DNA of 64,000 bases from Desulfosudaceae bacterium (GTDB lineage: Bacteria; Desulfobacterota; Desulfobacteria; Desulfobacterales; Desulfosudaceae): NCBI GenBank assembly GCA_963674745.2, contig CAXXDV010000001.1, positions 1,408,001 through 1,472,000 on the forward strand. Reading direction: 5' to 3'. Of this stretch, positions 1 to 19,151 are shown one piece after another (the first letter of the stretch is position 1; each line of letters starts with the position of its first letter). A program made the translations under genes and the position numbers. Below the pieces are notes generated by a model. That model did no database searches. It was given only the letters and a program-made list of their open reading frames with translations, and was not told the DNA's origin.

Positions 1-558
1 GGCCAGTACTTTGATAGTGAGACAGGGCTGCATTATAATATGTGGCGGTACTATGATCCAGAGATGGGGAGGTTCTTGCGGAAGGATCCGGTGGGACTAA
101 GGGGTGGCGTTAATCTGTTTTTATATGCTTTGAATAATTCAGTGAACAATGAAGATCCATTCGGTTTAATAACGCTAGTGGCAGACATCCCTGAGGACCC
201 AAATGCTAACACTGTAGTATGTGATGGTAAAGGTGGGACAAGGATCCAAGTGACTGAAACAGATGAATGTATCAAGAGTTGTGTAGAAGCACATGAACAG
301 AAGCATAAAGAAGATATTGACCAATGGGATCCTGATGTTTGTAAAAGAGGTGGGAACAAACCGGATGGAACTAGAATTGTTATACCTGATATTACTTATC
401 GGAGATTATCAGAAATCACTGCTCGAAATCGTCAATTGGTTTGTTTGCATGAAAAATTAAAATGCCCAGACGATGGATGTTTTGAAACAATTCAGAAGGA
501 AATAAAAATAAAAGAAAGACAAGCTCAACAGTTGATGAACGGAACGTTACCCCTGTAA
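1..558 (+). CDS. 3' end of an Rhs-family protein (core + Cys-rich HExxH C-terminal domain); 5' end outside the window
   Basis: Frame 1 from base 1 reads GQYFDSETGLHYNMWRYYDPEMGRFLRKDP...NLFLYALNNSVNNEDPFGL (Rhs core, DPxGL), then a CT containing HEQKH. Confidence 0.85.
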   Translation, partial: GQYFDSETGLHYNMWRYYDPEMGRFLRKDPVGLRGGVNLFLYALNNSVNNEDPFGLITLVADIPEDPNANTVVCDGKGGTRIQVTETDECIKSCVEAHEQKHKEDIDQWDPDVCKRGGNKPDGTRIVIPDITYRRLSEITARNRQLVCLHEKLKCPDDGCFETIQKEIKIKERQAQQLMNGTLPL

Positions 559-803
559 AAAAAGAAAAATTATTATAAATAGGAACCTGACTCGCTAGAT
601 TGCTGGGCCACTACATGACCACAAAAAAGTGTAAAAAAACTGTATTACCTGTTTTTGTTACCATGAAGCATGAGGGTTGCCTCCTAAATTTTGATGTTTT
701 GGTTTGGTCACCTACATCAAAACCGGTAACCCTCTTTTTTGCATGAGGGGTGTCAGATCAAGTTGAAACTATTTCACTTTATGTTTGCGGATTGTGATCA
801 CAG

Positions 804-1673: not shown

Positions 1674-1750
1674 TAATGATTATATAGTCGGTTTGCCTTT
1701 TGCCCGAAATCTGATTTCGTATAGTAAATAAAATTTTATCAGGGATTAAT

Positions 1751-1819
1751 GGGGACGTCCATGCTTTTATGCATTTCCTCAATTTTTTTGTGTGGTAGTG
1801 GGTGACGGTTTATGCCCGA
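1751..1819 (-). repeat. inverted copy of array repeat B
   Basis: ggggacgtccatgcttttatgcat...gtgggtgacggttt is the reverse complement of the repeat at 4928-5007. Confidence 0.8.
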
Positions 1820-1826
1820 CATGAGG

Positions 1827-2252: not shown

Positions 2253-2306
2253 ATGTTTGTATATAAATTTTTAATCAGTATTGACAATTGTCCCCAATAG
2301 TCCCAC

Positions 2307-2687: not shown

Positions 2688-2717
2688 ATCGATCCCCCTT
2701 CTGATAATTTAAGGTTG

Positions 2718-3380: not shown

Positions 3381-3639
3381 GCCCCCTCCTCTTTATTAAG
3401 CATTAAATAAAATACTGTTTTCGTTTTTGCTGCCTATGCTTTCCCCCAAAACCTTTATAGCGGCTGGGGGTGACACCCTCCACAGTAGCGACAGGTACAA
3501 TGAGGGCATTCTTTATTTCAAAGATTTTGATCAGTTCAAGAAGATTGTTGCAGCCTATAAAAACAGGATTAAAAAAGTTACAACCAATGAAACCTCTGTT
3601 TTGCCTACTTACTGTTTGAAAATGATTTGCCTTCTTGTC

Positions 3640-3672
3640 TCCCGGTGTGTCGATCCTTGCCTTCCGTGGCAT
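3640..3672 (-). pseudogene. 5' remnant of a REP-associated (Y1/RAYT-like) transposase
   Basis: MPRKARIDTPG resembles the N-terminus of deltaproteobacterial RAYT-like proteins; resemblance stops after 11 codons at a GGGAGAC motif. Confidence 0.5.
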
Positions 3673-3794
3673 TTTCGCTCCCTATTATATCTGCATTTCA
3701 GGGGGAAACGCATAAAATCATAGACGTCCTCATTAGCCCCCCAAAGAAAAGGAAAACATATAAAAATAGGTGCTTAATCGGATAAGTTCATAAG

Positions 3795-4298
3795 TTATGG
3801 GCGTACCTTATTTCTCTCCTTTGGGTGAATAATTAGCCAACCACCAATTCTTTTTTCTTTTCCAACATTAGGTATATAATAATTCCAGAATATCAAAATG
3901 TCTTTCCTCAAGAAATTGTTTATCTCCGGAAATCTTTCTTGTAATAAAATCTTGCCATCTAAAGTTTCTCCGGGTTTTAACTTAACAAGTGTTATGCCAG
4001 GATCCTCAATAGTTGTTAATTCACGGAGAGGGGCTCTTTTATCATCTAAAGGGATTACACAAAATATCATTGTAGGCGTTGGACGCCAAGGCAAGTACAC
4101 CTCATTGAATATTAAAGGAGAGTTACCTTCGTTCTTTAATATCATTTTAAGGTTAATATTATCTTCATCATACAAAATCTGTGCTTCAACATTAAACAAT
4201 AAGTCATTATTTTTAGATATCACATTATCACACTGTAGACAAATAACTAGTATCGTTAACACTATAAACAATTTTTGTTTACATGAATTGTTGTGCAT
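3795..4298 (-). CDS. putative immunity protein (exported)
   Basis: Overlaps the 3' end of the upstream Rhs CT; hydrophobic N-terminal segment; start uncertain. Confidence 0.6.
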   Translation of the reverse strand: MHNNSCKQKLFIVLTILVICLQCDNVISKNNDLLFNVEAQILYDEDNINLKMILKNEGNSPLIFNEVYLPWRPTPTMIFCVIPLDDKRAPLRELTTIEDPGITLVKLKPGETLDGKILLQERFPEINNFLRKDILIFWNYYIPNVGKEKRIGGWLIIHPKERNKVRP

Positions 4299-4830
4299 AT
4301 TCCTGAACCCTATTAATTTCATCTTCAATTTTTTTAATGCATAGAGAATCCGGATCGGTGCATTTTAATTCTGTCTTTTTTGCTTTCAAACAAACTAAAG
4401 ATTTATTACATGCGCGCCGTTCTGAAGGCGCTCTTTCACTCCACTCCCACCAAATTCTGGTCATATAATCTTTACCTTTACAAATATTATTGTTAATTCT
4501 TAGAGCATCCTCTATATGTATGTTTTCATGCGCTCGAGAACAATCTTTGAAGCATTCACCGCCTGGTGCCAAATATGGCATAATCCCACCCCTGCCATCG
4601 CATACAATTGTGTTGTTGGGATAATCTTTATCGAGCTTCCCGCTTGCGGTTAACAACCCTCTTTCATCATAATAATTTTTTGGATTTCCCATGGCATATA
4701 GATAATAACTATTCACTCCACGACTTGATCTAATCGGATCAACCCTCAAGTACCTCCCCTTGCCCGGATCATAATACCTATTCCAATTATAATGTAGCCC
4801 TGTCTCGTCATCATAGTATTGGCCCGGATA
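4279..4830 (-). pseudogene. orphan Rhs core + C-terminal toxin (HExxH, Cys-rich)
   Basis: Open frame YPGQYYDDETGLHYNWNRYYDPGKGRYLRVDP...DERGL, then CT with HENIH; no start codon before the core. Confidence 0.85.
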
Positions 4831-4887
4831 TATTCTGATGCGAGTCCCCCATAAAGACCTGTTTTTTACCCCCCTTGTTTTGTTGGC
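4815..4887. repeat. repeat A: conserved Rhs-junction/putative att sequence
   Basis: GTATTGGCCCGGATATATTCTGATGCG-n-CCCC-n-AAAGACCTGTTTTTTACCCCCCTTGTTTTGTTGG; six copies in the window. Confidence 0.9.
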
Positions 4888-4927
4888 CCCCGGATGAACT
4901 CATTTTCAAAGATATGATAGTTTACCA

Positions 4928-5007
4928 TATGGTCGTTGGGCAAAAAAACCGTCACCCACTAACAACACAAAGAAACCGAAGAAACGCATAAAAGCATGGA
5001 CGTCCCC
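4928..5007. repeat. repeat B (ends in GGACGTCCCC)
   Basis: TATGGTCGTTGGGCAAAAAAACCGTCACCCACTAAC...GAAACGCATAAAAGCATGGACGTCCCC; also at 6586, 7939 (partial), 13246, 3705 (partial) and 1751 (inverted). Confidence 0.9.
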
Positions 5008-5054
5008 ATTAGCCCTCAAGAAAAAATGAATATAAAAATGTAAAGATCAGTTAT

Positions 5055-5768
5055 TTACTTACTTTGACCCTTTTGCTCCCCACCGGCAGGCAAGCAGCAG
5101 GTGTCATCCTTACCAAGTTGCATCAACTTTTTATCACCTGAAGACAAATCTAATAAATACAATTTCTCCCTTAATGGATTATTCTGGTTGGGTCTTTCAA
5201 CCAAAAGAATAATTCCAGGTTCTATTACCCGTACGGCATCAATCGCACTGATGAGAAATTCTGCTTCTTGATCAAAAGAGTCATAAATTAACGTCATTGT
5301 CAAACTGCTATCCACTGAAATAATAGTTGTTCTTGCGGGCCTTGAAGTAGAAACAATCATTAGTGCTTTATTTTCTATCGAAGCAATTGGTGTCGTAATA
5401 AATAATAGATGATCATAGGTCACGTCACGAGCGGTTTTATTTTTAATATCATAGCAAGGAACATATCCAGACACATGGTCAGGAATTTCGTTTTGAACAA
5501 TAAAAGCATGTTCTATAAAAGCTAGCCTTGTCCCAAGTTGTTGCTTGTTAAACTGTTCAAGTTCTGCTCTTAATTTCTTTAAACACAATGGTTCTTGGTT
5601 ATTTAATTCAAACTGTTTCTCAAAATCACTGTAATTACTAATATAATATGAAAAAGCAACAAGTAAACGTGGCAACTGATAAGGAGATAGATAAGAATCA
5701 TTGCCACTCGAAACAACATGACATGGTAAACATGTTAGAATAATTACAAGTATGATAGTTTTACCCAT
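5055..5768 (-). CDS. putative immunity protein (exported)
   Basis: Directly downstream of an Rhs CT; signal peptide. Confidence 0.6.
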   Translation of the reverse strand: MGKTIILVIILTCLPCHVVSSGNDSYLSPYQLPRLLVAFSYYISNYSDFEKQFELNNQEPLCLKKLRAELEQFNKQQLGTRLAFIEHAFIVQNEIPDHVSGYVPCYDIKNKTARDVTYDHLLFITTPIASIENKALMIVSTSRPARTTIISVDSSLTMTLIYDSFDQEAEFLISAIDAVRVIEPGIILLVERPNQNNPLREKLYLLDLSSGDKKLMQLGKDDTCCLPAGGEQKGQSK

Positions 5769-5815
5769 GTTTCAAGCCCTCTATTTTTTCAATATCAATT
5801 TGCAATTAATTCTTA

Positions 5816-6454
5816 TTATAAGATACATCCCGAAATAAAATCTTTTCTATTACACCAACCTTTTAAAGGGTCTGTATAAAAATAGAGGGTTCCTCCGCTC
5901 ATGCCTTTCACTGTTACAGTCCCCGTTGGAGATAATGGTTTGCTTCTTTTGACCAATGTTCTTCCTCCTCCCTTACAACATTTCCAACACTTTTGAACCA
6001 GTTCGCAATTTTGGTGTCCAACGCACATTATTTCACCGCCACCGGTTTTATCAGACCCTCCAGAAGCATTAGTTATATTTTTCCAAGCAGCTTTTCGATT
6101 TTTGTTTTTCAGGTTAGCCCCATTCAATTTTCCACAAGTTCTGGCAGTATTTGTTCTTGAACAACAAGCAGATATACTCGCTTTAGCGTCAGCCAATCCA
6201 GGAGGGATAGTTTTGATGTCATTATAGCTAACAATAGCCCATGGTTCAATTTCCCCCATCGTCCACTCATCTGCTACGCTTAATGCTTTCGAATCAATAA
6301 GATTTACCGGGGTATTCCAAACATACTCATAAAGATTAATCCCGCCGCCTACACCAATCGGATCAACCCTCAAGTACCTCCCAACCTCAGGATCATAATA
6401 TCTGTGGTAGTTGTAGTGCAGACCAGTCTCATCATCGAAGTATTGGCCCGGATA
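5816..6454 (-). pseudogene. orphan Rhs core + Cys-rich C-terminal toxin of unknown family
   Basis: YPGQYFDDETGLHYNYHRYYDPEVGRYLRVDPIG...NLYEYVWNTPVNLIDSKAL. Confidence 0.85.
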
Positions 6455-6664
6455 TACTTCGATGTGGGTTACCCCCGAAAGACCTGTTTTTTACCCCCCT
6501 TGTTTTGTTGGCTGTTGGAAATAAAACTGTTCTTTATGGGTTAAAGGGAAGGGGAGTTAAAAGATGCAGAAGCGCATCCATTCTATATGGTCGTTGGGCA
6601 AAAAAACCGTCACCCACTAACACACGAAAAAACCGGAGAAACGCATAAAAGCATGGACGTCCCC
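6439..6664. repeat. repeat A + linker + repeat B
   Basis: Near-identical to 13101-13324 over ~220 bp. Confidence 0.9.
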
Positions 6665-7119
6665 TATTCGTTCCCTTTTTGTTCCAATGAAATAGCAGGA
6701 ATCTTTATGAATTTAATTTCGACATCACTATCATCAAAATTATTATCTAATTTTTTTATTTTGTACTCGATTTTACATGGATAGTACTCATCTAAAGAAA
6801 TTATTATTGTAATTTTTGATGGTAGTTTCCCACACCTGTCTCCCCATAAAGAAGGGCCTTTATATGTATTGAACTTATAATTTACTTCAAATGTGCCATC
6901 TTTTCTGCTAATTTCTGAATCACCATATTTATCCTTATCAAGAAATACGATTACCGAAGCATCTGATATCGAACAATCAATACAATCTCTATCTTTTGTG
7001 ATAACACTGCCAATTACTTTTATTGTTTCATAAGGACATTTTGGCATTGCTTTATCAACGAATAGCAGAGTAGACATGTTAATAAAAAATAAAGATAAAA
7101 TTATTTTTTTCATAGCCAT
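6664..7119 (-). CDS. putative immunity protein (exported)
   Basis: Downstream of an Rhs CT; signal peptide; stop codon abuts GGGGACGTCC. Confidence 0.6.
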   Translation of the reverse strand: MAMKKIILSLFFINMSTLLFVDKAMPKCPYETIKVIGSVITKDRDCIDCSISDASVIVFLDKDKYGDSEISRKDGTFEVNYKFNTYKGPSLWGDRCGKLPSKITIIISLDEYYPCKIEYKIKKLDNNFDDSDVEIKFIKIPAISLEQKGNE

Positions 7120-7137
7120 CCTTCATATTACATTGTT

Positions 7138-7731
7138 TTATTTGCATTCACATGGGTTTCCATTTCCATATCCGAAACAGGATTTTTCACACGCTTCTGG
7201 CTTTGCTTCAGTAAAATGCCTACAACTATGCACCATCTCATGCAATATTGTGGACTTAAGAGGACCACAGCTGCTAATAGAGAAACCCGATCCACTGATA
7301 TAAATAGTATCTGAAAAAAGTGGTGCTGCATGACCACAATAGGATTTATTATCACACTTTATCTTAAGTTTAGCCCATTTATCTTTTAGACAACGTTTAA
7401 GCAAACCGTCCTTAATACAATTCGAATTAATAGCAACTGCGACATCAACCATAGCTCCATCAATTGCCGAAATATGACCTGAACAAGATTCATAGATCGC
7501 ATAAAGTCCTTTTTCATCAAAAATGGTCAATATATTATTTTGAGCATATACATATGTATTTAATGTGCTTGGTTTATCTATCGAATCAAACAATAAGAAT
7601 GGAATTTGCTGTTCCTCTGAATACAGATTATGGCTTGGATCAACCTTCAAGTACCTCCCCTTGCCCGGATCATAATACCTATTCCAATTATAATGTAGCC
7701 CCGTCTCTTGATCATAGTATTGGCCCGGATA
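7138..7731 (-). pseudogene. orphan Rhs core + HExxH metallopeptidase-like toxin
   Basis: YPGQYYDQETGLHYNWNRYYDP...DEKGL; TILHEMVH. Confidence 0.85.
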
Positions 7732-7789
7732 TATTCTGATGCGCCTTCCCCCCGAAAGACCTGTTTTTTATCCCCCTTGTTTTATCGGC
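7716..7789. repeat. repeat A
   Basis: ttggcccggatatattctgatgcg...gaaagacctgttttttatcccccttgtttt. Confidence 0.9.
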
Positions 7790-8028
7790 CCCCAAGGTTC
7801 ACTTTAATATCAAAATTCGTGTATCTTCGTAATTCCGTGGCCCTGAAGGCAACCAGGCAGGCATATAAAAAATGCTCTCCCTCCTTATTCATGCCTGCCT
7901 GGGGGAGTTTTTTTGACCATAAGATTGACCTTATTCCCTATGGTCGTTGGGCAAAAAAACCGTCACCCACTAACACTCATAAAAAGAAAACAAATAAAAA
8001 TAGGCACTTAATTGAATAAGTTCATAAG

Positions 8029-9862
8029 TGATTCCTGAGAAGTAACTCTGTAAATTCCGGCAGTAATTTGCTATAAAGCGTTATGTATAAACGGACTGAC
8101 CGCCAAAGACAACTATTCGGAATAGAATCGCAGCTGCCTGAGTCGTTACAAATACGTTTGAAAGAATCTTGGGCTCAGATTTTCAATCAAGAAATTCTTT
8201 CCATCTTGATGAACAACGAAGATCAATTTTCTCAACTGTATGGCACCACAGGACGGCCCAATTTCAGTGTGGCGCGTATGTTGGGTCTTTGTCTGCTGCA
8301 AGAACTAAACAATCTGAGCGATCAACAAGCCCTTGATGCATTTGGGTTTGACATCCGTTGGCGATATGCGTTGGATGTGGACGAACAGGATGCATACCTG
8401 TCTCGCCGATCACTTGTTGAGTTTCGCAGGCGTTTAGCTGCCAAAGATCCGGAGATGAGAAGTGTTCGCACCATCTTTGAGCAGATCAGCAAGGCAGCCA
8501 TTAAAAAGCTTGGCCTTTGCGCAAGCGACCAAAGAGTGGATTCTACTCATATCGTATCCAACATATGCACCCGTGGCCGGCTGGATCTGTTTAACAAAAC
8601 CATCAACCTGTTTCTTAAAAGCCTGACAGTGGCCCAGTATTCACGCGTCCCCCAATATATAGCAAATTGGCACCAGCAAGAATCAAACGGCTGGTTCGGA
8701 TTAGGGGCCGGTGAACGCAAGGCAGAGTTGAAGCAACTGGCAAAATACTTAAACAAACTTATTGTCATTTTTAAAAAAGACAAACAGGTAGCAGCCGACG
8801 AGCCTTATCAACTGCTTGTACGACTATTCAATGAGCAATGTGAAATCCCTTCGGGCGAATCCGGACAAGAGAACAAGGCCGACGAACAAATCAAAATTAA
8901 GAAAAAATGCACTGGCGAAACTCTGCAGTCTCCATATGACACCGATGCTTCTTACGGGCATAAAGGCAAGGGTTACAGTGTCCATATCACCGAGACGTGC
9001 AATAATCCGAAAAAGAAGGAAATCATTACCGACTACGAGGTGCATGGCGCAGCCCGGTCAGATGTAGCGAAAGCTCCGGATATTCTTGATCGATTGGAAG
9101 CAGCAGATTTAAAGCCGGAGACGTTTTTTGCCGACGGTGGCTATCCTTCAGTGCCTTCGGCGGTAAAGGTTGTTGAACGTAGTGTCGAGTTCATTGCCCC
9201 GGTAAACCGCAGCAAGCTGGCGGACGAAGTAATGGGGCGAGACCAATTTAAGTTCGACAAACAGGGACATGTATCGTATTGCCCGATAGGGCACCAACCG
9301 GTCGACCATCGGATGCTTAGCGCCAATAATAAAAAGGGCAAATCGCTATACGCGATTTTTGATGGTGATCTTTGTCGCAAGTGCAGCAAACTTGAACAGT
9401 GTCCGGTACGCGCGCCCAACCATCGCGAGCGTGGCTGCAGGCCACAGGATACAGTAGGCGACTTTAGATTGGAAATAACCGATGGTCTTCGCCTAAGAGA
9501 CCAAATGTTTGCGGATCAACGGACAAAAAGCTGGAAGGACCGTTATAAAATACGCTCGGGGATTGAGGCAACAATGTCGGAATTGAAACGAAGCCATGGA
9601 ATGGCAATGCTTCGAGTTCGCAAGCTGCCAAAAGTAAGCTTCGCTGTGGCATGTAAAGTAATAGCATGTAACATAAAACGCTGGGCCAAGGCCTATGCGC
9701 AGCCAAATCATGCGCATAGCCGCCTTATAAGCCAAACTTGGGGCCTAATACGGCAATCTACGCCTCGACTCGGAAGGATAAGGTCTATCTCCCGGTCAAC
9801 GGCCCGCCGAAAATTTTGTTGTGCAACCTGATGCAAAATGGGGGCTTACTTCTCAGGAATCA
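8029..9862 (+). mobile_element. insertion sequence, IS1182/IS5-like
   Basis: Perfect 17-bp terminal inverted repeats TGATTCCTGAGAAGTAA (8029-8045) and TTACTTCTCAGGAATCA (9846-9862); 4-bp TAAG direct repeat on both flanks. Confidence 0.85.
8083..9831 (+). CDS. DDE transposase (IS1182-like)
   Basis: GRP..LSD..WRYAL N-terminal domain; VDSTH, ADGGY and YKIRSGIEATMSELKR catalytic motifs. Confidence 0.9.
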   Translation: MYKRTDRQRQLFGIESQLPESLQIRLKESWAQIFNQEILSILMNNEDQFSQLYGTTGRPNFSVARMLGLCLLQELNNLSDQQALDAFGFDIRWRYALDVDEQDAYLSRRSLVEFRRRLAAKDPEMRSVRTIFEQISKAAIKKLGLCASDQRVDSTHIVSNICTRGRLDLFNKTINLFLKSLTVAQYSRVPQYIANWHQQESNGWFGLGAGERKAELKQLAKYLNKLIVIFKKDKQVAADEPYQLLVRLFNEQCEIPSGESGQENKADEQIKIKKKCTGETLQSPYDTDASYGHKGKGYSVHITETCNNPKKKEIITDYEVHGAARSDVAKAPDILDRLEAADLKPETFFADGGYPSVPSAVKVVERSVEFIAPVNRSKLADEVMGRDQFKFDKQGHVSYCPIGHQPVDHRMLSANNKKGKSLYAIFDGDLCRKCSKLEQCPVRAPNHRERGCRPQDTVGDFRLEITDGLRLRDQMFADQRTKSWKDRYKIRSGIEATMSELKRSHGMAMLRVRKLPKVSFAVACKVIACNIKRWAKAYAQPNHAHSRLISQTWGLIRQSTPRLGRIRSISRSTARRKFCCAT

Positions 9863-9890
9863 TAAGTTAAGAACGTCCCCTATTTGTCTC

Positions 9891-10715
9891 CTAAATCTTA
9901 ACTTTATTAGGAAGGTCTAATATCACTTCGGTTTTCAAATCTAAAACAGCATGTGGGAAAGATTTTCTTATAGTAAAGGTTTTCTTCAGAATGCCTACAT
10001 ATTTCGAAAAAGAATATATTTCTATAGTTGCATTTTCTTCCTTAAGATTAATGATTGGTTCCGGATTTATTTTTAGGGCATCGGCTTTCAATTGTTTTGG
10101 TATATACTCAGAGACAATGCGCGTTAACGTCTGCTTGTCACATATAATAGTAAGTTTGCTATAATTTTCATGGTCTGCCAATAAAAAACTGTCACCCATT
10201 AAATACAAAACAGCCAACTGAAAAAATCCCATTGGAGTACCGTCTGTTTTGACATATCGGATAAATCTTTTTTGTAGGATTTCAGCATAATCGGGATCTG
10301 ATTCATCCCAGCTACCTACCAAGGACGACCATATAGCACACGCTGTTTCAGAATCATATTCATTACGATTATTCTTTTTGGCATATATAATTGGTCTGCC
10401 ACTCATAGAAAAAAAGCAATAAAAATACTCTAACGAATAATCATTCAATATTGATAAACTGCCTAATATGTCAAAGTATTTATTTATATCTATTTTCATT
10501 TCTTTATTATTGTCTAATAATTCTTTCTCAAAAATAGTAAAGTATCCTTTCACTCCCAATTTTTCTAAAAATTCTTTTTGCTGATCTTCAATGCACATAG
10601 AAAAGTTATCAACTATTTCCTGATATTTCGATTTAGAAAACGAAAAAGATGAATCAATAAATATAATAGTAAAGATAGTTAATACTGTAAAAAATATAGC
10701 AAGAGTATTTTTCAT
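9891..10715 (-). CDS. putative immunity protein (exported)
   Basis: ATG MKNTLAIFF lies 2 bp after the toxin stop; signal-like N-terminus. Confidence 0.65.
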   Translation of the reverse strand: MKNTLAIFFTVLTIFTIIFIDSSFSFSKSKYQEIVDNFSMCIEDQQKEFLEKLGVKGYFTIFEKELLDNNKEMKIDINKYFDILGSLSILNDYSLEYFYCFFSMSGRPIIYAKKNNRNEYDSETACAIWSSLVGSWDESDPDYAEILQKRFIRYVKTDGTPMGFFQLAVLYLMGDSFLLADHENYSKLTIICDKQTLTRIVSEYIPKQLKADALKINPEPIINLKEENATIEIYSFSKYVGILKKTFTIRKSFPHAVLDLKTEVILDLPNKVKI

Positions 10716-10717
10716 TA

Positions 10718-11362
10718 TTATTCTCCCAGTGCATATCCATAAGTTGAATATTGTGCACCATATCCATAATCTCCATCTTCTGGCCTTTTGTTTTGGAACC
10801 AAGGGTATCCTACCTTTCTCAAATCAGGTCTTGTCCCCCCCTTGAATTCTGCAAAATGGCCAAACTCATGAATCAGAACATTTCCTCCCCACTCAGGATT
10901 ATTGTTTTTTAGCTTTGGGCTAAGAGTAATTGTATTAGTATTAGGGTCGTATTCCCCCGTTCCTCGAACATCACCAAAACGTACTATAGTGCCACTACAT
11001 TCTGCTGTTAATATTTCTTTTATATCCACATTAAATAAGTTGAAATAGTCAACACCATTTATATATTCCTTTTGTCGGTCCATAAACCATTTCTCTGCTC
11101 TGGGATTATAATCTATATTTTGCATTATGTTATTAATATATCCTTTTATTATTGCTTTTTCATTTTCATCATTTGTTCCGTATAAAATTAGTCCTAATTG
11201 ATCAATATTAAAGACAGGATTATTATCCACATACAAATAATAATTAATCCCACCGCTCAACCTAATCGGATCCTCCCTCAAATACCTCCCAGACCCAGGC
11301 TCATAATACCGCCACATATTATAGTGCAGCCCCGTCTCACTATCAAAGTATTGGCCCGGATA
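10718..11362 (-). pseudogene. orphan Rhs core + HExxH metallopeptidase-like toxin
   Basis: YPGQYFDSETGLHYNMWRYYEPGSGRYLREDPI...DQLGL; LIHEFGH. Confidence 0.85.
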
Positions 11363-11488
11363 TATTCTGATGCGGGTTCCCCATAAAGACCTGTTTTTTA
11401 CCCCCCTTGTTTTGTTGACCCCCGGATGAACTCTTTTCTCAAGATATGATAGTTTACCTTTCAAATCAAACGATCTGTGGCAGTTAAA
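11347..11488. repeat. repeat A with extension shared with the copies at 4815 and 14276
   Basis: cccggatgaact...aagatatgatagtttacc is shared with 4889-4926; tttacctttcaaatcaaacg...cagttaaaaaa is shared with 14378-14417. Confidence 0.85.
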
Positions 11489-11791
11489 AAAGAAAACAAA
11501 TCGGGTGAAAGCGGCTCCAATATGCCGGAGATGATCCGCTGCCATTTTTTGGGCAGACCGGCGTAGATGGTTTTCAACCGTTCCCGACGAGCTTCGTATT
11601 CCAGGCAAATATTTTGTACGGCAGGACTCGAAGCCACGGCGGAACAAACATCACAACCATCTTACCCGCACGGCCACAGGCGAGGTCGGCCGGCAGAATG
11701 GGGGCGCTTTTCGGGGGCGTCTCCGTCCCCTAAGTCGTTCCCATGTTGGCTTGGTGCGCCCCCATTTGACAGTTAGTCTATTTTGTCCCCC

Positions 11792-12577
11792 TCAGTTAGG
11801 GCTACATATTTCAAGTGGGGGTTTGTGGAGTTCTGTAAAAATTGGGGGGAATATATCATCTTGCGTACCACATAAACCATCTTTACCTTTTGAACCTAAA
11901 AAATAAAATACACTTCCACTCTTATATATAAAACTATGGCTCCATCCATCTATAACTAAATTTGATTCGAAATTATTGTTTTCAGTTTTTAATTCCATTA
12001 AATCAACTGGATATTTCCCTTTGGTGTTGAAAAAATTTTTTAAATGTTTCTGAATATTATATAATTTGACCTTTGTTAAACTTATTGGATCAAGCTCAGA
12101 GTACTCGTACCCATAAGGAATTTTATAACAAATATGCTCTATTATAAAAACAATCCGTTCATTTCTTTTTTGTCTAATCAAATTGATATTTTGTTCATTC
12201 GGCATTTCATCATGTATAGCTTCAGCCAACATTTTTCTTCTTAAGAAGGGTAAAGAGGAATCCCCCTTCTCAATTATGGCTTTCGTAATAATTTCCATAG
12301 GGGTCTCGCCCAAATAAAAATCCAAAAGATCTACTAATAATTCTGAGGATTTAATACTTTTAAGCCCACTTAATTCATCAAGCGAATTATAAAATATATT
12401 GATATCTTTTTTACTATATATATTTGTTTTTAAAATATTTTTTAGTAAAAAACATATTTCCTTTTCCTCTTTGTATTTTTGTAATAAATCGTTTCTTCCA
12501 TCAATATTCGCGGCTTCTAAAAATCCGCTTAGACTAATAGAAGCTAAAAACATAAAAACAATAATTCTTACTATCAT
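11792..12577 (-). CDS. putative immunity protein with C-terminal GspG(T2SSG)-like segment
   Basis: Overlaps the toxin stop (ATGA); signal peptide; GKYP..L..L...DGWSHSFIY...SKGKDGLCGTQDDI. Confidence 0.6.
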   Translation of the reverse strand: MIVRIIVFMFLASISLSGFLEAANIDGRNDLLQKYKEEKEICFLLKNILKTNIYSKKDINIFYNSLDELSGLKSIKSSELLVDLLDFYLGETPMEIITKAIIEKGDSSLPFLRRKMLAEAIHDEMPNEQNINLIRQKRNERIVFIIEHICYKIPYGYEYSELDPISLTKVKLYNIQKHLKNFFNTKGKYPVDLMELKTENNNFESNLVIDGWSHSFIYKSGSVFYFLGSKGKDGLCGTQDDIFPPIFTELHKPPLEICSPN

Positions 12578-13116
12578 TTGACCACCAGTGTTCCGCCTTT
12601 ATCTTTTGTTAGGCAATATATTAAAGTTGACAAGTTCTTATTCACAGAAATACATCCTATGTTCTTTTGACCAGCACCATGAATGAAAAATTCTGTTCTT
12701 CCGTGTGCTTTATGGCCATTGGGTTTTAGGTATGCCCATTTTGGGTGTTTAGATATCCAACCAGGAGTATATATTTTCCAATTGCCTGTCGGTATTGGGC
12801 CGCCTACTTTTTTTTCTGAACTTTCTTTTCCATCCCCTGAAAAGGCTGATGAAGAAAAATTACAACATTTTTTGTCATTAGTATTAAAGGTACATACGAG
12901 TGTGCCATTTGTACCCGCACCTCGTGTATATGTACATGAAGCTAACCCTTTGTTATCAAAGAAAATAGCCGGATTGATATTGGCATAAAAATAAAGATTA
13001 ATCCCACTTTCAAATCCCACTGGATCAACCCTCAAGTATCTCCCGATCTCAGGATCATAATACCTATTCCAGTTATAATGCAGCCCGGTCTCATCATCGT
13101 AGTATTGGCCCGGATA
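12574..13116 (-). pseudogene. orphan Rhs core + Tlde1/DUF2778-like L,D-transpeptidase-fold toxin
   Basis: Core ...DNKGL; CT has GPIPTGNWKI, GRTEFFIHG and GCI motifs. Confidence 0.8.
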
Positions 13117-13324
13117 TATTCTGATGCGGGTCCCCCCCGAAAGACCTGTTTTTTACCCCCTTGTTTTGTTGGCTGTTGGAAATAAAACTGTTCTTTATGG
13201 GTTAAAGGGAATGGGGTTAAAAGATGCAGAAGCGCATCCATTCTATATGGTCGTTGGGCAAAAAAACCGTCACCCACTAACACACGAAAAAACCGGAGAA
13301 ACGCATAAGAGCATAGACGTCCCC
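13101..13324. repeat. repeat A + linker + repeat B
   Basis: Near-identical to 6439-6664. Confidence 0.9.
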
Positions 13325-13333
13325 CGGTAACAA

Positions 13334-13747
13334 CTATTTCCCAGGCATAAAACTTAAATAGATTGGTGGGCCTTCATTATATGAATGTAGAAATATTTTA
13401 ATAGTTGCAACTTGATACAGTTCTTTAAACATGAAGTAAAAAACTGGATAATTATAGCCATTTTCCGATGGATTATATGTTCCATCAAATTTAAATATTT
13501 CTTTATCTGTAATAATTGAGCAACTTACTTTATAATGAGTCGTTTGTTTTTGACTTATTTCCCTCTCGTTAAATGCTAATACATACGGACCGCCATATAT
13601 TAAAGGAGTAGTAATTATATTCTCTCCCTCCTTTAATTTTTTTTCAATAGGGTCAATAAATATTATATGCTTCAAAGACCAAAAAACAAAACCGACTATT
13701 ATTAAAATTATGACTAGAGAAAGGCTACTTATTATTTTTATATTCAT
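13334..13747 (-). CDS. putative immunity protein (N-terminal membrane anchor)
   Basis: Downstream of an Rhs CT; one hydrophobic helix. Confidence 0.6.
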   Translation of the reverse strand: MNIKIISSLSLVIILIIVGFVFWSLKHIIFIDPIEKKLKEGENIITTPLIYGGPYVLAFNEREISQKQTTHYKVSCSIITDKEIFKFDGTYNPSENGYNYPVFYFMFKELYQVATIKIFLHSYNEGPPIYLSFMPGK

Positions 13748-13774
13748 TTCGACGGCCTCGAATAATTTCTAGAC

Positions 13775-14287
13775 TTATAATTCCGGATAAATTAGCCACC
13801 AAGGAGTTGGGTCTTTAAGGCCACATGTTATGAATGCTTTTCGAACTTTGACTCCACAAGTGTCGAATAGTGTAATTGCGCCACTCGGGCCATTATTTAC
13901 TAAACATGTTTCAATTTCGCTCCAAGGCCTTACATCACATTCATCCTCTCTCTCAGCAGGATAACAGTGAGCATGTCCACTTTCATATTTATTGGGTTCT
14001 GCTGGGGCACTCAATTTTTGTCCATTACTTAATTTGATAAAAGCATGCCATAGTACAGCAAGTTCTCCCATTTTCTCATTATGACCCATCATTGGACGAT
14101 AGCAGGCTATAGGTCGAAGGCCAAAGGCATCACTGTTGTTTATGGGATTATTAAACGCATACAAAAACAGAGTAATCCCTCCATTTAACCCGATCGGATC
14201 AACCCTCAAGTATCGTCCAATTTTAGGATCATAATATCTGTGTCGGTTATAATGCAGCCCCGTCTCACTATCAAAATATTGGCCCGG
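13775..14287 (-). pseudogene. orphan Rhs core + C-terminal toxin
   Basis: PGQYFDSETGLHYNRHRYYDPKIGRYLRVDPIG...DAFGL; preceded by an in-frame TAG. Confidence 0.85.
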
Positions 14288-14346
14288 CTATATTCTGATG
14301 CGGGTCCCCCCCGAAGACCTGTTTTTTATCCCCTTGTTTTGTTGGC
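14276..14346. repeat. repeat A, copy adjacent to the recombinase genes
   Basis: attggcccggctatattctgatgcgggtccccccgaagacctgttttttatccccttgttttgttggccc. Confidence 0.9.
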
Positions 14347-14618
14347 CCGTAAGAAGGCTTTTCTAAAGATATGGCAATTTACCTTTCAAATCAAACGGTT
14401 TGTGACAGTTAAAAAAATCAGGATTACTTTTTACTAATAAGTCGGGTATGCTCTATACATAAAATGCAATTAGGAAAATATAAAATCTTGTGATAATGGG
14501 GTACCACAAAGATTATTAACCTTGCTTTATGTCTAAAGGATTTTAGCCCCATTAGTAACTGCCGGATTCGGGCAGCGTGCTGGTATTGCGGGGTTCATAT
14601 TGCCGGGCTGAGGGACGG

Positions 14619-15545
14619 CTATCGGCCGGATGCAACTTCGGAAGGGTGATACTTGCTGTGGACTTCTTTAAGGTCGTTGATGGTGACACGGGTATAAAGC
14701 TGGGTAGATTCTAATGACTCGTGGCCCAACATCTCCTGCAGATGCCGGATCGGCGCACCGTTTCTCAACATGTGCGTGGCGCAGGTGTGCCTGAACGTGT
14801 GGGTGGAGACGTTTTGTTTGATGCCTGCCATGCGTGCGCAGCGTTTGACAATGGCCCAGATGCCGTTGGGGTTCATCTTTTTTCCCCAGCGGTTTAAGAT
14901 CAGGTGGCCGTTGTCGTGGCCTTTTATCCAGGCGGGCCGGACCATCAGGATATAGTTTTCCGCCAGGCCGCACACCCGGCGGCTCATGGGCACGACCCGG
15001 TCTTTATCGCCCTTGCCGTGGACCAGGGCATAACCGGAGGTAAGGTCAAGATCGGACAAGTGCAGTCCGGCCAGCTCAGAACGCCGGATGGCCGTGTCAT
15101 AGAGGATTTCAAGGACGAGCCGGTCCCGGTTACCGTTATTGGTGCGCGTGTCCGGAGCGGCCATGAGCTTTTGGATGTCATCGGCGCTCAGGATGACCCT
15201 GGGCAGGCGTCGGGGTTTTTTCGGCAGTTGCAGGGCTTCGCCGGGATCATAGACAAGATAATCTTGTTTCTTTAAAAACCGGGTAAAACCTTTGACTGTG
15301 CCTAACATCTGAGCCTGGGTCCGCAAGGACAAAGGCTTGTCGGCGGCTGTATGACGGAACGCCAGGTCCTGCTGGTATTCGTACAGGATGTCACGATTCA
15401 GGGCGTCAAGGTTTACTGCCTGTTCCTGCGCCAGGAACCCGGCCATGTCTTTCAGCCCGTATTTGGCCCCCCGGATGGTGTAATAAGACCGGCCCAGGGC
15501 CTTTAAATGGTTGAGGTAAACCGGTATCAGTTCAGTGATGGTCAT
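14619..15545 (-). CDS. XerC/XerD-type tyrosine recombinase
   Basis: AIRRSEL, GKGDKDR, HTFRH, LGH and TQLY catalytic set intact. Confidence 0.95.
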   Translation of the reverse strand: MTITELIPVYLNHLKALGRSYYTIRGAKYGLKDMAGFLAQEQAVNLDALNRDILYEYQQDLAFRHTAADKPLSLRTQAQMLGTVKGFTRFLKKQDYLVYDPGEALQLPKKPRRLPRVILSADDIQKLMAAPDTRTNNGNRDRLVLEILYDTAIRRSELAGLHLSDLDLTSGYALVHGKGDKDRVVPMSRRVCGLAENYILMVRPAWIKGHDNGHLILNRWGKKMNPNGIWAIVKRCARMAGIKQNVSTHTFRHTCATHMLRNGAPIRHLQEMLGHESLESTQLYTRVTINDLKEVHSKYHPSEVASGR

Positions 15546-16450
15546 GGTTGCTCCTGGTTCGGATGGGTTTTGTCATGGATTTGCTTAACTTCTCGCGGCA
15601 TTATTTTGGTATAGGCCTGGGTGGTTTTAAGGCTTTTGTGGCCCAGGAGCTCCTGGATATGGCGGATGTCGGCCCCGTTCTGCAACAGATGGGTGGCGCA
15701 GGTCCGGCGCAGGGTGTGCGGGGACACGCTGGTTTTAATGCCCGCCTGATCACGATACTTGACCAGCAGGCCCCTGACGCTAGCCGGTGTCATGGCCCGG
15801 CCGGTGATAAGCAGAAAAAGCCGTCTTTCTTTCGGGTTCTTTTTAGCGTAACAGGGCCGGATTTTTTCCAAATACGCTTTGACCCCTGCAGCGGCTGTTT
15901 TGCCCAGGGGTACCACCCGCTGACGTCCGCCTTTGCCATGGCGGATGTACAGCACGTCCTCTATTAAATCCACATGATAAATCTCAAGGCACAACAGCTC
16001 GTTTAACCGGATACCGGTGGAGTAAAGCACTTCCATGACGGCCCGGTCCCGGATATGGGTTTTTAAGGACAGGTTGGGCTGTTCAAGGAGCTTTTTCATC
16101 TCAGCCATGGTCAGCACAGGTCCGATGCGTCGGTGTCTGCGGCAGGTCTCAATAATACCCTCGGTGGGACTGATCAGCAACCGGTGATTTTCTTCCAAAT
16201 GCTCAAACAACCGTTTGACGGCCCGGATTTTCAAGGCTCTGGTCTCCATAGCCACGACCTGGGCCATAACATAAGACTGATAATCAAGCATGACTTGCCG
16301 GGTAACCTGTCTTAGATCGCTAATATTATTTCTGGTCAGCCAGGCCGCGAACTGGTCCAGGTTTTTTCTGTATATCTCGATTGTGGCCGGAGCATAGCCC
16401 CTGACTCTTAGTTGCTGCTTGAACTCGGCTATAGTTACGACGACCTCCAT
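15542..16450 (-). CDS. XerC/XerD-type tyrosine recombinase
   Basis: GIRLNEL, GKGGRQR, HTLRR, LGH, TQAY; ATG at 16450 follows a GAGGGGG RBS; ATGA overlap with the next gene. Confidence 0.95.
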   Translation of the reverse strand: MEVVVTIAEFKQQLRVRGYAPATIEIYRKNLDQFAAWLTRNNISDLRQVTRQVMLDYQSYVMAQVVAMETRALKIRAVKRLFEHLEENHRLLISPTEGIIETCRRHRRIGPVLTMAEMKKLLEQPNLSLKTHIRDRAVMEVLYSTGIRLNELLCLEIYHVDLIEDVLYIRHGKGGRQRVVPLGKTAAAGVKAYLEKIRPCYAKKNPKERRLFLLITGRAMTPASVRGLLVKYRDQAGIKTSVSPHTLRRTCATHLLQNGADIRHIQELLGHKSLKTTQAYTKIMPREVKQIHDKTHPNQEQP

Positions 16451-16574
16451 AAGCACCCCCTCTCTCTCCGCTGTTTCTTGCTCCACAACCTCGTAGTCGT
16501 TCGGTTTGTGTCTTAACATCAGATGGTTAAGTGCCATTTTGACAGCCCTCGTTGTTCCCTCGTAGTTGCCCGAA

Positions 16575-18950
16575 TTACCCTCGTAGTCGGCTACTCTTCT
16601 CTTGTTTCATGAGTTTTTTTATTTCTTCGATCGGCGTCAGGTTTAAATAAAACCGGGTGATGTCTTCTCCCTGGCCCTTGTAATTTAAAGCATAGGCATA
16701 CTCCTTGCCCCTGGCACCGAACCGGACAAGCAGATATTCCAGGTCCTCAAGCTGGCTGATGTGGGCGCGGATCTGCCAGTCCGTCCAATTGATGGCTTCT
16801 CTGATCTGCCGCCGGGTAAAAAAGACCTCATCTACCGGGATCCTTTGTTTTTTGGATATGTCCATAACCATGCGATAGATGCCGTCAAGCAGTATCCGGG
16901 AAGGCCGGACCAGCTCGTCCAGGCTCTGACCCAGGACGTCATTGGCCAGGACATTGGCTTTGTTAATATCATCTAGAGTAACCTCGATGTATTCCACGGC
17001 CTTGCCGTCCGCCTGCACGGTCCTGGTCTGTCTCTGGTACTGATGCAAAAAGGCAATGGCCTCGATCAGGCCCAGGTATTTGTCATGGTCCCTTCGGCTG
17101 ATAAGCGATTTTGTGGGATAGGACAGGTACGGCGTAAAAGGGTTGACCACGGCCACGGGCTTTAACATCTGCTGGGCGATCTGGTGGATACGTTCAATAT
17201 GGGTTGATTTGGTCCGGTTGACAAGGCCCTCCAAAGTCCGGGCCTGCTTCTGCTTGTCGTGGATGGCGGCCGTCATGGATTCTGATTCGTCTATTGAAAG
17301 AAAGATAAACCGGGAAGCTGTCTCGGCTTCAATGTCGGCTGCCGTGGTGGTCAGCATGACCGAGACCGGGCCTTCCACGGTATAGGTTTCTGTTTTCATC
17401 TTGCCGGTGCCCGGGTCTTTCCCGGTCGCGGCAACTCTGATCCGGCCTTCTGACTGGATATTTCTTATGGAATAGGCAGCCCCGCCCACGCCCGCCTCCT
17501 CCTCGATGGCCAGGATTTTATGCTTTAATGATCCTTCTTCCTTGTAAAAAAGGGCCTGATCGGTCACGCGGGTGTATTTTTCTTGATGGCTTTCCGGAAC
17601 AAAGCGGAGGATGGCGTTCTGTAATGTCGATTTACCGGCCCCGCTTCGGGACTGGATCAGGGTGGACAAGGGCTTTGCCAGAAGCCGGGACACGGCCGTC
17701 AAATAACAAACAATCTTGTTGGTTTCTTCGCCCACAATGCCCATGACCAGCAAGGCGTCAAGGATTTCTTTAAACATGTCCGGAGATTTTAAAAATTTTT
17801 CTGCGGCGGTCTTTTCTGTCTGGCTGGGCTCAAGGGGTTTGGTTTCCTGGGCTTTGGGCTGGAAGTTTTCCACCAGGGTCAGGAGTTTGCCGATATCTTC
17901 TTTTGCCAGCTCCTCGGCCGCGCCGAACAGGTCGGCGCAGAGTTTCGCAAACCACAGCCGGGACCGGGAAGAATAAAGATCAATGGTGGTCAGCTCAAAA
18001 GGCAGGTTGCTCTCAACGTCGGCAGATGCCTTGATCACGGCTTTTAGCTGGGTCTCGCCGCGCTGTATGCCCTTGACGTGGTATTGTCGTTTTCCGTATC
18101 CCACGATAAAGCCCTGTTGCGTATGCTTGTAGATGGTCTTTTTGCGGGGATGGACATAATCGGAGTGTTCCAATGCTTTCGGGTTGACCTGATTCAGTAG
18201 GGCCTCGAACTGCTCGGGGGTATGCCGCTTAAAGTAGATGGTAACATCTTTAACGGGCAGCTCAATAGCATAAGGCGTGACCTGTGCTTCTTTTAGCTGC
18301 AAGGACACGATTTGTGCTGTTTTGCGACCTTTGTCGTCACCGCTAAAGACCAGGTAGGCGTCTTTTATCCTGCCCTTGCAATAAGAAAGATGATCAGCGG
18401 TAATGCCGTTGGCGTCGTACAGGGGCATGACTTTTTTAAATCCTTGATCGTAAAGAACTAAAGCGTCAATGACCGTTTCTGTCAGCAGGATCGTCTGGGA
18501 ATGCTTGACAGCCCGGGTATTAATCAGGCCGGAACATCGGCCTGGCAGGTATAAATGGGGCTGTTCGGAGGCTTCGTCTGTTTTGCGGCCGTACAGATTG
18601 ACCACGGCCCCGGTTGTATCGTACAGCGGGAAGACCACGCAGTTTAAAAAGCGTTCCTTGCTTTTGGTGTTCAGGATGCCGATGGTTTTTAAATCAGCGA
18701 TAATTTTGTCATCATCCGGCAGGGTGGAAGGTAATGTGCCATTGACGTAGCCGGCGCCAAAGTCCCTTAAGGATTTGTTTTTATTTATGTTCCGGACGTT
18801 TTTCAGGTAGTCCAGCCCTAGGGCGGTCTTTTCAAACGTATGCTGATAATAGGCGACCACGCGCGCCAAAAGCTTTTTTTCTCTGACGGTCAGGGGGATG
18901 GAGTCGTTGTTTGTAACTTTGATGCGATCTGCGCTTTTTTGTTCTATCAT
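16575..18950 (-). CDS. DnaG/Toprim-like primase fused to a P-loop NTPase (helicase-like)
   Basis: ERFLNCVVFPL...LYGR primase core; LTETVIDAL Toprim-like; SRSGAGKST Walker A; ILAIEEE Walker B; start uncertain. Confidence 0.8.
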   Translation of the reverse strand: MIEQKSADRIKVTNNDSIPLTVREKKLLARVVAYYQHTFEKTALGLDYLKNVRNINKNKSLRDFGAGYVNGTLPSTLPDDDKIIADLKTIGILNTKSKERFLNCVVFPLYDTTGAVVNLYGRKTDEASEQPHLYLPGRCSGLINTRAVKHSQTILLTETVIDALVLYDQGFKKVMPLYDANGITADHLSYCKGRIKDAYLVFSGDDKGRKTAQIVSLQLKEAQVTPYAIELPVKDVTIYFKRHTPEQFEALLNQVNPKALEHSDYVHPRKKTIYKHTQQGFIVGYGKRQYHVKGIQRGETQLKAVIKASADVESNLPFELTTIDLYSSRSRLWFAKLCADLFGAAEELAKEDIGKLLTLVENFQPKAQETKPLEPSQTEKTAAEKFLKSPDMFKEILDALLVMGIVGEETNKIVCYLTAVSRLLAKPLSTLIQSRSGAGKSTLQNAILRFVPESHQEKYTRVTDQALFYKEEGSLKHKILAIEEEAGVGGAAYSIRNIQSEGRIRVAATGKDPGTGKMKTETYTVEGPVSVMLTTTAADIEAETASRFIFLSIDESESMTAAIHDKQKQARTLEGLVNRTKSTHIERIHQIAQQMLKPVAVVNPFTPYLSYPTKSLISRRDHDKYLGLIEAIAFLHQYQRQTRTVQADGKAVEYIEVTLDDINKANVLANDVLGQSLDELVRPSRILLDGIYRMVMDISKKQRIPVDEVFFTRRQIREAINWTDWQIRAHISQLEDLEYLLVRFGARGKEYAYALNYKGQGEDITRFYLNLTPIEEIKKLMKQEKSSRLRG

Positions 18951-19151
18951 ATCTACGCTCTCATCTGTCAGGCATGTTAAAAGATTGACTGTTGTTTTCC
19001 TGATGCCTGATAATGAACCATAGATAAGTGTGTAAAAGTCAGAAAAGCGACTTTTGCGGCTCGGCCGGGTTATGTGTTCGGCCAACCATTGATGCCCAAG
19101 AGTGTTTCGGAGGAGGGGCGTCAAAGCCGGAGGATGAATTCAAAGGAGGGG

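Follow-up and report, generated by a model that had tools for sequence, protein, structure and literature searches.

A putative integrative element associated with exchange of Rhs toxin tips in a Desulfosudaceae bacterium and its relatives

The stretch of DNA analysed here (the window) comprises 64,000 nucleotides of a Desulfosudaceae bacterium, C1:1408001-1472000, from a genome of 5.5 Mb in three contigs (C1 to C3). On its minus strand lies an array of six cassettes, each composed of a fragment of the Rhs core, a variable toxin tip and an immunity gene, and each lacking an N-terminal part of its own; beside the array are two genes for Xer-type tyrosine recombinases and one for a primase-helicase-like protein. 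Comparison with related genomes leads us to favour, at somewhat better than even confidence, a site-specific integrative and probably replicative element which swaps Rhs toxin tips and whose target is the last repeat of rhs genes. The element may be the episomal tip carrier that was predicted in 2009.

The cassettes are marked by six direct repeats of about 223 nt (window 4704-4926, 6328-6550, 7605-7827, 11236-11458, 12990-13212 and 14164-14386). When the minus strands are aligned, all six carry the leader ...CAACAAAACAAGGGGG-TAAAAAACAGGTCTT-n-GGGG-n-CGCATCAGAATAT(A/G)(T/G) directly before CCGGGCCAATA, which encodes PGQY. This leader, written also as ...CAACAAAACAAGGGGG-TAAAAAACAGGTCTT-GGGG-CGCATCAGAATATAT, is roughly 60-90 nt long, is not Rhs sequence and abuts the PGQY codons. 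Past the junction the last Rhs repeat continues for about 90-140 nt, beyond which the toxin ends are unrelated; a small open reading frame (ORF) lies downstream of each. Three more copies of the junction are present on C3, and the break falls at the same base in all nine copies of the genome, ie the core fragments do not vary in length. The alignment agrees with a preliminary description of this DNA, which had reported six modules with one PGQY breakpoint behind a common non-Rhs leader. The GC content of the cassettes is 31-41%, against 55-61% for the flanking chromosome.

The genome has two full-length Rhs genes. The first, of 4182 residues, lies on the plus strand at C1:1396010-1408555 and ends at window position 558, so that it converges on the minus-strand array. 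The second, of 4462 residues, is on C3 and is followed by three leader-type cassettes in direct orientation; the C3 array is thus 3' of, and co-oriented with, its full-length gene, whereas the full-length gene at the window converges on the array instead. Both read ...VENNLRF|PGQY, and upstream of the P codon their DNA matches the leader at 5 of 15 bases (by eye). Homology therefore begins at CCGGGCCA and the leader is no copy of these cores, as the preliminary description had held in calling it non-Rhs. The same description called the modules start-less. That is strictly so for the copy at 14290, where TAG directly precedes the P codon, and for the copies with TAA 12-13 codons upstream; at 4830 and 11362 the frame is open further upstream and, at 11362, contains an in-frame ATG and TTG. 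Runs of G in the leader vary among the copies (eg 14300-14360, 13125-13170 and 4840-4900), with 4-6 G in the first run and 4-7 in the second, and the frame running into PGQY shifts as a result.

The nearest recombinase gene, Xer1 (14619..15545, minus strand, 308 residues), ends 329 bp from the last junction. It is followed by Xer2 (15542..16537, minus strand, 331 residues) and by the gene for the primase-helicase-like protein (16575..18950, minus strand, 791 residues). Both Xer proteins are XerC/D-like, give full-length matches to Phage_integrase and have the R..K..HxxR..H..Y residues visible in their translations, so the earlier statement that two intact-looking Xer genes lie about 330 bp from the last copy stands. 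Their scores against the XerC/XerD equivalog models (238/229 and 240/235 bits) fall below the cut-offs of 330/335 for a housekeeping assignment. The genome contains three paralogous Xer pairs beside primases, and other Xer homologues elsewhere.

Intact elements of about 8 kb were found in the relative G002 and on C3 of the window's own genome (G000). The order, taken as a circle, is the leader, the last 30-45 or so codons of the core (PGQY to DPxGL), tip, immunity gene and a short conserved block, then a non-coding stretch of about 1.6 kb, one small ORF, a DnaG-type primase fused to a P-loop helicase-like domain, Xer2, Xer1, the X block and the leader again. In G002 a full-length Rhs of 4099 residues with its tip is followed by the immunity gene, the non-coding region of about 1.6 kb, the small ORF (MTSTLETTDIF...), a primase of 907 residues, Xer2, Xer1 and a leader|PGQY tip with its immunity gene. 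This layout is the product expected from a circle, tip ... Xer1-leader, which has recombined with a resident rhs gene at PGQY.

Orthologues of Xer1 with 79-84% identity are present in three of 60 relatives (G002, G003, which has two copies, and G006), and homologues with 58% identity occur in G027 and, twice, at the C3 end of the window's genome. Each belongs to a primase-Xer2-Xer1 trio, and wherever a copy has sequence past Xer1 the conserved X block (TTTTTTAACTGCCACA..GTTTGATTTGAAAGGTAAA..), the leader and an Rhs tip follow. The leader|PGQY junction after Xer1 was seen also in G002 and G006, and two G003 contigs end exactly at ATCCGGGCCAGTACT, as expected if the assembly breaks at a repeat. 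When the X block and leader were compared by BLAST with 401 genomes of the order, the matches judged real were confined to G000, G002, G003 and G006, ie the four carriers of the leader are the genome itself and the three relatives with Xer1 orthologues of at least 79% identity; five further matches of 24-32 nt (E 3e-4 to 9e-4) were not counted as real. The exact leader pattern was too strict for this purpose, with no match in the 60 relatives and two in species-representative genomes, both in unrelated coding sequence, and relatives were found by BLAST and protein searches. The link of the junction to the recombinase/primase module, which the preliminary description had proposed, is strongly supported by the comparison of genomes.

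The non-coding region of about 1.6 kb between the immunity gene and the small ORF is conserved (L053 13242-15000; L083 approximately 13100-16000; C2:130801-131627). It has no long ORF, Rfam match or clear iterons, and in G002 only four tiny rows of two-copy repeats; it is a candidate replication origin. Contig C2 ends in an element-type non-coding region, 77% identical over 916 bp, which lies after a YD protein of 945 residues, and the class of this protein matches the GYRYY-type tips behind the two C3 elements. The C2 and C3 ends are probably joined across an assembly gap. As the assembly breaks within the repeated primase gene and the element non-coding region, at least one copy of the element is probably absent from it.

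A wider survey was made with the primase alignment A2 against 401 genomes of the phylum and with the C-terminal half of the primase against 401 genomes of the class; the class-wide search gave 27 genomes with a match at E <=1e-15. The flanks of the matches were mapped by tblastn and with a hidden Markov model (HMM) built from 44 tips. There were 39 Xer1-type places in all, in 12 of which the contig runs out less than 700 bp past Xer1. Among the other 27, each with at least 475 bp downstream, 22 have an Rhs tip on the same strand within 1.5 kb after Xer1. The HMM found 17 of these tips and the motif NNP....DPxGL found five. Sixteen of the 17 have 0-44 residues open upstream and the remaining one, at L133, has 66, and the five found by the motif have 11-16; as judged from these frames, the tip after the last recombinase lacks most or all of the Rhs core. 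Rhs tips are rare elsewhere, with 16 matches in the 5.5 Mb of the window's genome. On the left flank, a tip lies on the same strand within 9 kb upstream of the primase in 11 of the 16 places with at least 4 kb upstream, and in seven of those 11 it ends a frame open for 445-1847 residues. Both flanks are seen in G002, G690, G158 and G086. In G086 a full-length Rhs is followed by three tandem elements, each with a displaced tip after it, and in G158 by two. A metagenome scan with the primase alignment gave one locus only (L087), and viral contigs and phage records gave no relative of the primase.

The exact position of the junction varies with the recombinase. In most of one Xer1 clade it is at PGQY or the equivalents TDQE and STKY, for the C3 pair of the window's genome it is at GYRYY, and in a second clade at NNPxxxxDPxGL. 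All fall in the last Rhs repeat, each at a different exact position (PGQY, GYRYY, DPIG, NNP..DPxGL). On a tree of 30 Xer1 rows and two Xer2 outgroup rows (L127, which has three stops, and partial and sub-38% rows were left out) the junction labels require 13 changes, compared with a mean of 21 after shuffling and with none of 200 shuffles as low, a clustering which is descriptive only because relatives share labels. A recombinase gene lies at one end of the element, beside the junction, and short direct repeats are found at both ends: in the second clade these are of 40-47 bp with 82.5-93.6% identity (G853, G799, G830), which is short for homologous recombination, and in G002 CCGGGCCAATACTACGATG is common to both ends. 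Across the clades the leader keeps CTTTTTAACTGC, GCTCTTTGA and TAAAAAACAGCTCT, and its final 13 nt or so (RTATCANRRTAYWT) are conserved whatever the target side reads.

Several candidate structures at the junction are no more than ideas. The 14-bp palindrome of the preliminary description is weak (5/7 by eye) and is not conserved in TDQE-type leaders. The same lack of conservation applies to two further readings made by eye, a 9-8-9 inverted repeat in the leader (GACCCGCAT / ATCCGGGCC) and a dif-like reading of CGCATCA-GAATAT. A 16-nt likeness between the D2 block and the leader, in inverted orientation, gave no stable single-strand fold.

In the window itself the element is reduced. Relative to orthologues of 890-907 residues (alignment A2), its primase has an in-frame loss of approximately residues 14-120, the DnaG zinc finger. 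Homology to the element stops about 40 bp upstream of the primase ATG, beside the end of an oxidoreductase gene, and there is no small ORF, left non-coding region or fused Rhs. Each spacer between the cassettes corresponds to a piece at about 1025-1314 of the G002 element, just after the immunity gene, together with a piece at about 7907-8058, from after Xer1 to the junction. Since the spacers hold pieces of both the left and the right end, the cassettes are internal-deletion derivatives that keep both ends, and in this they are comparable to non-autonomous elements. By this comparison, the window holds a decayed copy of the element and five of its six cassettes are gene-less derivatives with both element ends.

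Related modules extend beyond the phylum. The C-terminal half of the primase matched 37 plasmid records with 42-46% identity. A circular Lonsdalea plasmid of 11.3 kb carries xerC, primase, a RelE/ParE pair and two tips that have nuclease ends and come with immunity genes; upstream of DPIG...DPFGL no more than 6-10 codons are open in these tips. A circular Shigella record of 8.8 kb carries xerC, primase, Rhs fragments and immunity genes, with little or no core upstream of the tip fragments. As to excision, these two circular records are suggestive only. A Ralstonia megaplasmid has a version with one recombinase, in which a full-length Rhs and its tip are followed by the primase, the Xer gene and a displaced tip. 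Of 5426 complete E. coli genomes, 56 carry the Shigella-type module; it occupies 200 chromosomal places among them, and the median is four per genome. In E. coli SCU-113 the module, ie the primase and one XerC-like gene, lies at a vgrG-rhs locus between the vgrG-linked rhs and displaced tips; there are two copies, each followed by an identical leader of about 120 nt joined at ...GATCGTCCC|GATGACCCGATAGGGCTG (DDPIGL). The enterobacterial version (L156 = NZ_CP072857.1, L155, L158) also has, on the opposite strand in each unit, genes for a helix-turn-helix regulator and a SymE-type toxin, and the Lonsdalea plasmid additionally carries a RelE/ParE-DinJ pair. Martinkus et al. (2026, Curr Biol 36:176), as cited in a 2026 preprint, reportedly describe what is possibly the same kind of module in Enterobacterales, which may reduce the novelty of the present findings.

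In the mechanism that we propose, the Xer pair would catalyse recombination between the leader|PGQY site of a circle and the same codons in a resident rhs gene. The Rhs shell would thereby be fused in frame to the incoming tip, with the incoming immunity gene arriving along with it, and the old tip and its immunity gene would be displaced to the opposite end of the element, beyond the leader, where they lack a start. Repeated insertions would stack, and internal deletions would leave mini-cassettes with both ends, which could be moved in trans. Catalysis by the Xer proteins, excision, replication as a circle and any benefit to the carrier are inferences; what the sequences themselves show is the anatomy, the exact shared junctions, their linkage to the recombinase/primase module across clades, the flanking Rhs gene and displaced tip, the clade-specific junction positions and the short direct repeats in one clade. 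We suggest more tentatively, as a possibility rather less than evenly balanced, that the elements are selfish weapon-converters. They would be the predicted episomal tip vehicles, re-arming the Rhs of the host with their own toxin and its matching immunity, so that carriers would kill element-free siblings while keeping the old immunity. The mini-cassettes would form a library reshuffled in trans by the recombinases, and members of the family would range across Desulfobacterota-like anaerobes, Burkholderiales and E. coli, each recombinase clade having evolved its own exact target in the last repeat.

Several observations weigh against a tip-swapping element. The surveyed genomes are related and are not independent samples. 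In G085 a longer core fragment follows Xer1 and no Rhs is found within 7.8 kb upstream, in G239:C49 a core fragment of 335 residues follows Xer1, G073 is without a tip on both flanks, and none was seen within 1.5 kb at the copies of lowest identity (32-34%). The NNP....DPxGL motif, on which five of the tips depend, is expected 0.09 times per 1.5 kb by chance. No Xer gene lies near the leader-type cassettes on C3, and the element in the window, being truncated, cannot itself be complete. In E. coli a chromosomal tandem array repeats every 8.8 kb or so, which is the size of the Shigella record, so that this 'plasmid' is a unit that was excised or else an artefact of assembly. Neither an excision circle nor an empty site nor an alternative joint turned up in the contigs of sequencing runs, which were the only material searched; when the contigs of four of the six runs were compared with window 1-20000, joints were seen at repeats only and are uninformative on excision or inversion. 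A joint between 4777 and 6402 proved to be a collapsed repeat (depth 32-46). Finally, the first 90 nt or so after the junction are mosaic, with pairs of copies near-identical there and unrelated beyond: cassettes 1 and 3, and likewise the C3 main tip and its first orphan, match at 27-30 of 30 positions in three consecutive blocks. The preliminary description had taken PGQY to be the attachment site of a dedicated tip-capturing system. Linkage to the recombinases and the tips behind the last of them favour that claim, which is tempered by the homologous exchange that also shaped the cores and by the fact that no recombination event was directly observed.

Mosaic cores indicate homologous exchange or gene conversion, and they keep alive the view that homologous recombination alone is responsible, which we regard as doubtful but the best placed of the alternatives. 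Circles of core fragment and tip would insert by RecA-dependent crossovers in the core; the leader would be a frozen accident copied by duplication, and the Xer/primase module a plasmid-like passenger which entered by the same homology and uses Xer to resolve its own multimers. Exactly such circles were proposed by Jackson et al. (PMC2935791). Consistent with this, orphans in G044 and G057 retain variable lengths of core (30-208 residues open upstream), in G002 too there are orphans that keep 5-12 codons of core, no recombinase adjoins the C3 array, and the primase family is found on plasmids. Core crossovers do not readily account for a junction that is base-identical in nine copies and across three genera, yet differs in exact position from one recombinase clade to another, or for a clade in which only the 40-47 bp of imperfect identity is available at the ends. 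Neither do they account for leader bases conserved up to the junction irrespective of the target, or for a module whose orientation and distance to the junction are fixed in 22 of 27 copies. These points favour the site-specific element.

The preliminary description saw an integron-like array, ie a stationary platform where a resident recombinase pair would, like IntI at attI, capture free tip cassettes and store them at one fixed chromosomal site. The array does directly adjoin the recombinases and the mini-cassette ends are conserved, and, according to Ross et al. (10.1101/471110), the Bacteroidales rAID-1 combines a XerD-family recombinase, an array and integron-like intergenic repeats. This interpretation is now improbable, because the recombinases travel as part of a unit which sits between an Rhs gene and the displaced tip, is often tandemly repeated, and lies inside rhs loci in many genomes. 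Against the integron-integrase model TIGR02249 the two proteins score 109 and 133 bits, compared with a cut-off of 265. The spacers are not attC-like: in the two of five that were folded as single strands, the folds were no better than those of shuffled sequences (z +0.28 and +1.42). The cassettes, moreover, are in-frame 3' ends of genes, not promoterless whole genes.

A shufflon-like switch, in which the main PGQY site and a cassette site recombine and invert the DNA between them to give Rhs a new tip, would follow from the convergence of the full-length gene (plus strand) and the array (minus strand). In keeping with it, window 1-170 and the cores of the cassettes carry inverted repeats of 114-170 nt with 73% complementarity, and 38 nt at 92% are shared in this way with cassette 6; a D4/D2 block in plus orientation also lies 3' of the main tip. 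Such a switch is very improbable all the same, since a mosaic orphan near C3:2406178 explains the sole strand-switch joint of the contigs (79/81 to 14203/14205) and the Rhs gene and its tips are in direct orientation at all other loci examined.

Within the array, all parts of which are on the minus strand, cassette 6 (13334..14433) carries the tip at the right end of the element and consists of an immunity candidate at 13334-13747, the tip at 13775-14287 and leader plus X block at 14288-14433. A spacer piece homologous to the element left end (13241..13285) separates it from cassette 5 (11792..13171; immunity candidate 11792-12577, tip 12574-13113, leader 13114-13171). Next are a piece homologous to the left non-coding region of the element (11638..11718) and cassette 4 (9891..11495; immunity candidate 9891-10802, tip 10718-11359, leader and X block 11360-11495). 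Beyond another left-end piece (7846..7979, 88% identical to G002) lies cassette 3 (6664..7793; immunity candidate 6664-7119, tip 7138-7728, leader 7729-7793), and beyond a further one (6581..6694) cassette 2 (5055..6510; immunity candidate 5055-5768, tip 5816-6451, leader 6452-6510). The last piece (4922..4974), homologous to the left end just after the immunity gene, matches the G002 element at 1085-1135 and precedes cassette 1 (3795..4917; immunity candidate 3795-4328, tip 4279-4827, leader and part of the X block 4828-4917). The array is closed by a post-immunity block of the D4/D5 type at 3705..3798. No Pfam family was found for five of the six tips or for any immunity candidate; tip 5 has a weak Tlde1-like match. 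Between cassettes 3 and 4 the array is interrupted by an insertion sequence on the plus strand (8083..9831), with a DDE transposase of 582 residues (PF13751, PF05598 (DUF772) and PF01609), which is no part of the system. Another insertion sequence (532 residues) interrupts the C3 array and has a second copy at C3:46456-48051.

The 3' end of the 4182-residue Rhs gene, from PGQY to the stop (last core repeat and toxin tip), occupies window 1..558 on the plus strand. Its tip (1-555) is 44% identical to orphan tip 1 (4279-4827) over 185 residues, the whole length; the two belong to the same toxin family, with a common CDGxGG...AHExxH motif and no Pfam family. A post-immunity block of the D4/D2 type lies 3' of this main tip at 1734..1811 (plus strand) and forms inverted repeats I4-I7 with the array blocks. 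No plus-strand ORF fit to be the immunity gene of the main tip was found in window 558-1811. On the opposite strand an ORF of 289 residues with a signal-like start is present at 804-1673, before the plus-oriented block. Between the converging Rhs end and the array are two minus-strand genes, one for a small protein with a ClpX-type C4 zinc finger (1827-2252, E 3e-11) and one for a secreted-looking ankyrin-repeat protein (2718-3380). Just beyond the last cassette, at 3403-3672 (minus strand), is a fragment of 89 residues which starts MPRKARIDTPG and has no Pfam family. A full-length relative of 341 residues (MPRQARIDAPGAVHHII..) is encoded at C3:2400244-2401266, just beyond the C3 array, and presumably resembles a Y1 transposase of the IS200/RAYT type. 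Rfam gave nothing relevant: a weak psRNA2-like match at window 674-847 fell under the threshold, and at the edge of L080 there was part of a group II intron. Scans for promoters and terminators gave sites no commoner than in shuffled sequences.

The element shares features with several known systems. Integrons likewise combine a tyrosine recombinase with an array in which a repeated site divides the cassettes, and their cassettes have circular intermediates. The present proteins lack an IntI-type score and the two spacers that were folded lack attC-like folding; moreover, the recombinases here move along with the cassettes, which add an in-frame end to a resident gene. Islands of the SCCmec and PICI types work in a similar way, inserting site-specifically at the 3' end of a conserved gene and using a primase/helicase for replication after excision, and they too form tandem stacks and have recombinase-less, helper-dependent derivatives. 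They use other recombinase families or targets and restore the end of the target gene, whereas the Rhs element would swap in a different toxin domain. Xer-exploiting elements and pdif modules rely on the XerC/D of the host and on dif-like sites, unlike the present element, which encodes its own Xer-like gene or genes and for which half of the site is rhs coding sequence. The likeness to pdif modules (PMC6449649) is that these are small modules bounded by Xer-type sites and moving between replicons.

The closest precedents concern Rhs displacement and immunity arrays. Jackson et al. (2009; PMC2935791) describe homologous recombination through a circular intermediate, in which a single crossover shunts the old tip downstream, and predict an episomal pool of tips. 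The displacement arrays of that work are alike in having a full-length rhs followed by start-less modules of core fragment, tip and immunity gene. What differs here is a breakpoint that never shifts by a base, the foreign leader next to it, and its physical linkage to a recombinase/primase module. Xer genes beside immunity arrays are already known: Zhang et al. (2012; PMC3482391) mention XerC/D genes beside polyimmunity loci, and rAID-1 was described by Ross et al. (2019; 10.1101/471110). In both rAID-1 and the window, a Xer-family recombinase (XerD-family in rAID-1) heads an array that is low in GC, runs in the same direction and has motifs repeated between its genes, which in rAID-1 are small and related to immunity. 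As described, the rAID arrays contain immunity genes only, with one recombinase, no primase and no position inside rhs; the present cassettes keep an in-frame toxin tip, and the unit has a replication gene and sits between an Rhs core and a displaced tip. A follow-up of 2025 (PMC12247911) calls the biogenesis of such arrays unresolved. In the literature outside subscription-only papers, no description was found of a primase/recombinase element inserted at a fixed rhs codon.

Rhs and other polymorphic toxins often change their toxic ends. The picture accepted since 2009 (PMC2935791) is one of homologous recombination with hypothetical episomal circles and no known integrase or carrier. Enzyme and carrier alike would be provided by a physically linked recombinase-replication module whose junctions are exact to the base. 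As the one-recombinase version is present at the vgrG-rhs locus of those 56 E. coli genomes, its att sites and recombinases could be assayed in a standard host. The enzymology is inferred; in place of an integron-like platform, the locus is better seen as deriving from a mobile integrative element that swaps tips and has non-autonomous derivatives. Such an element would explain the pile-up of displaced tips, and may bear on the building of Xer-linked immunity arrays such as rAID-1.

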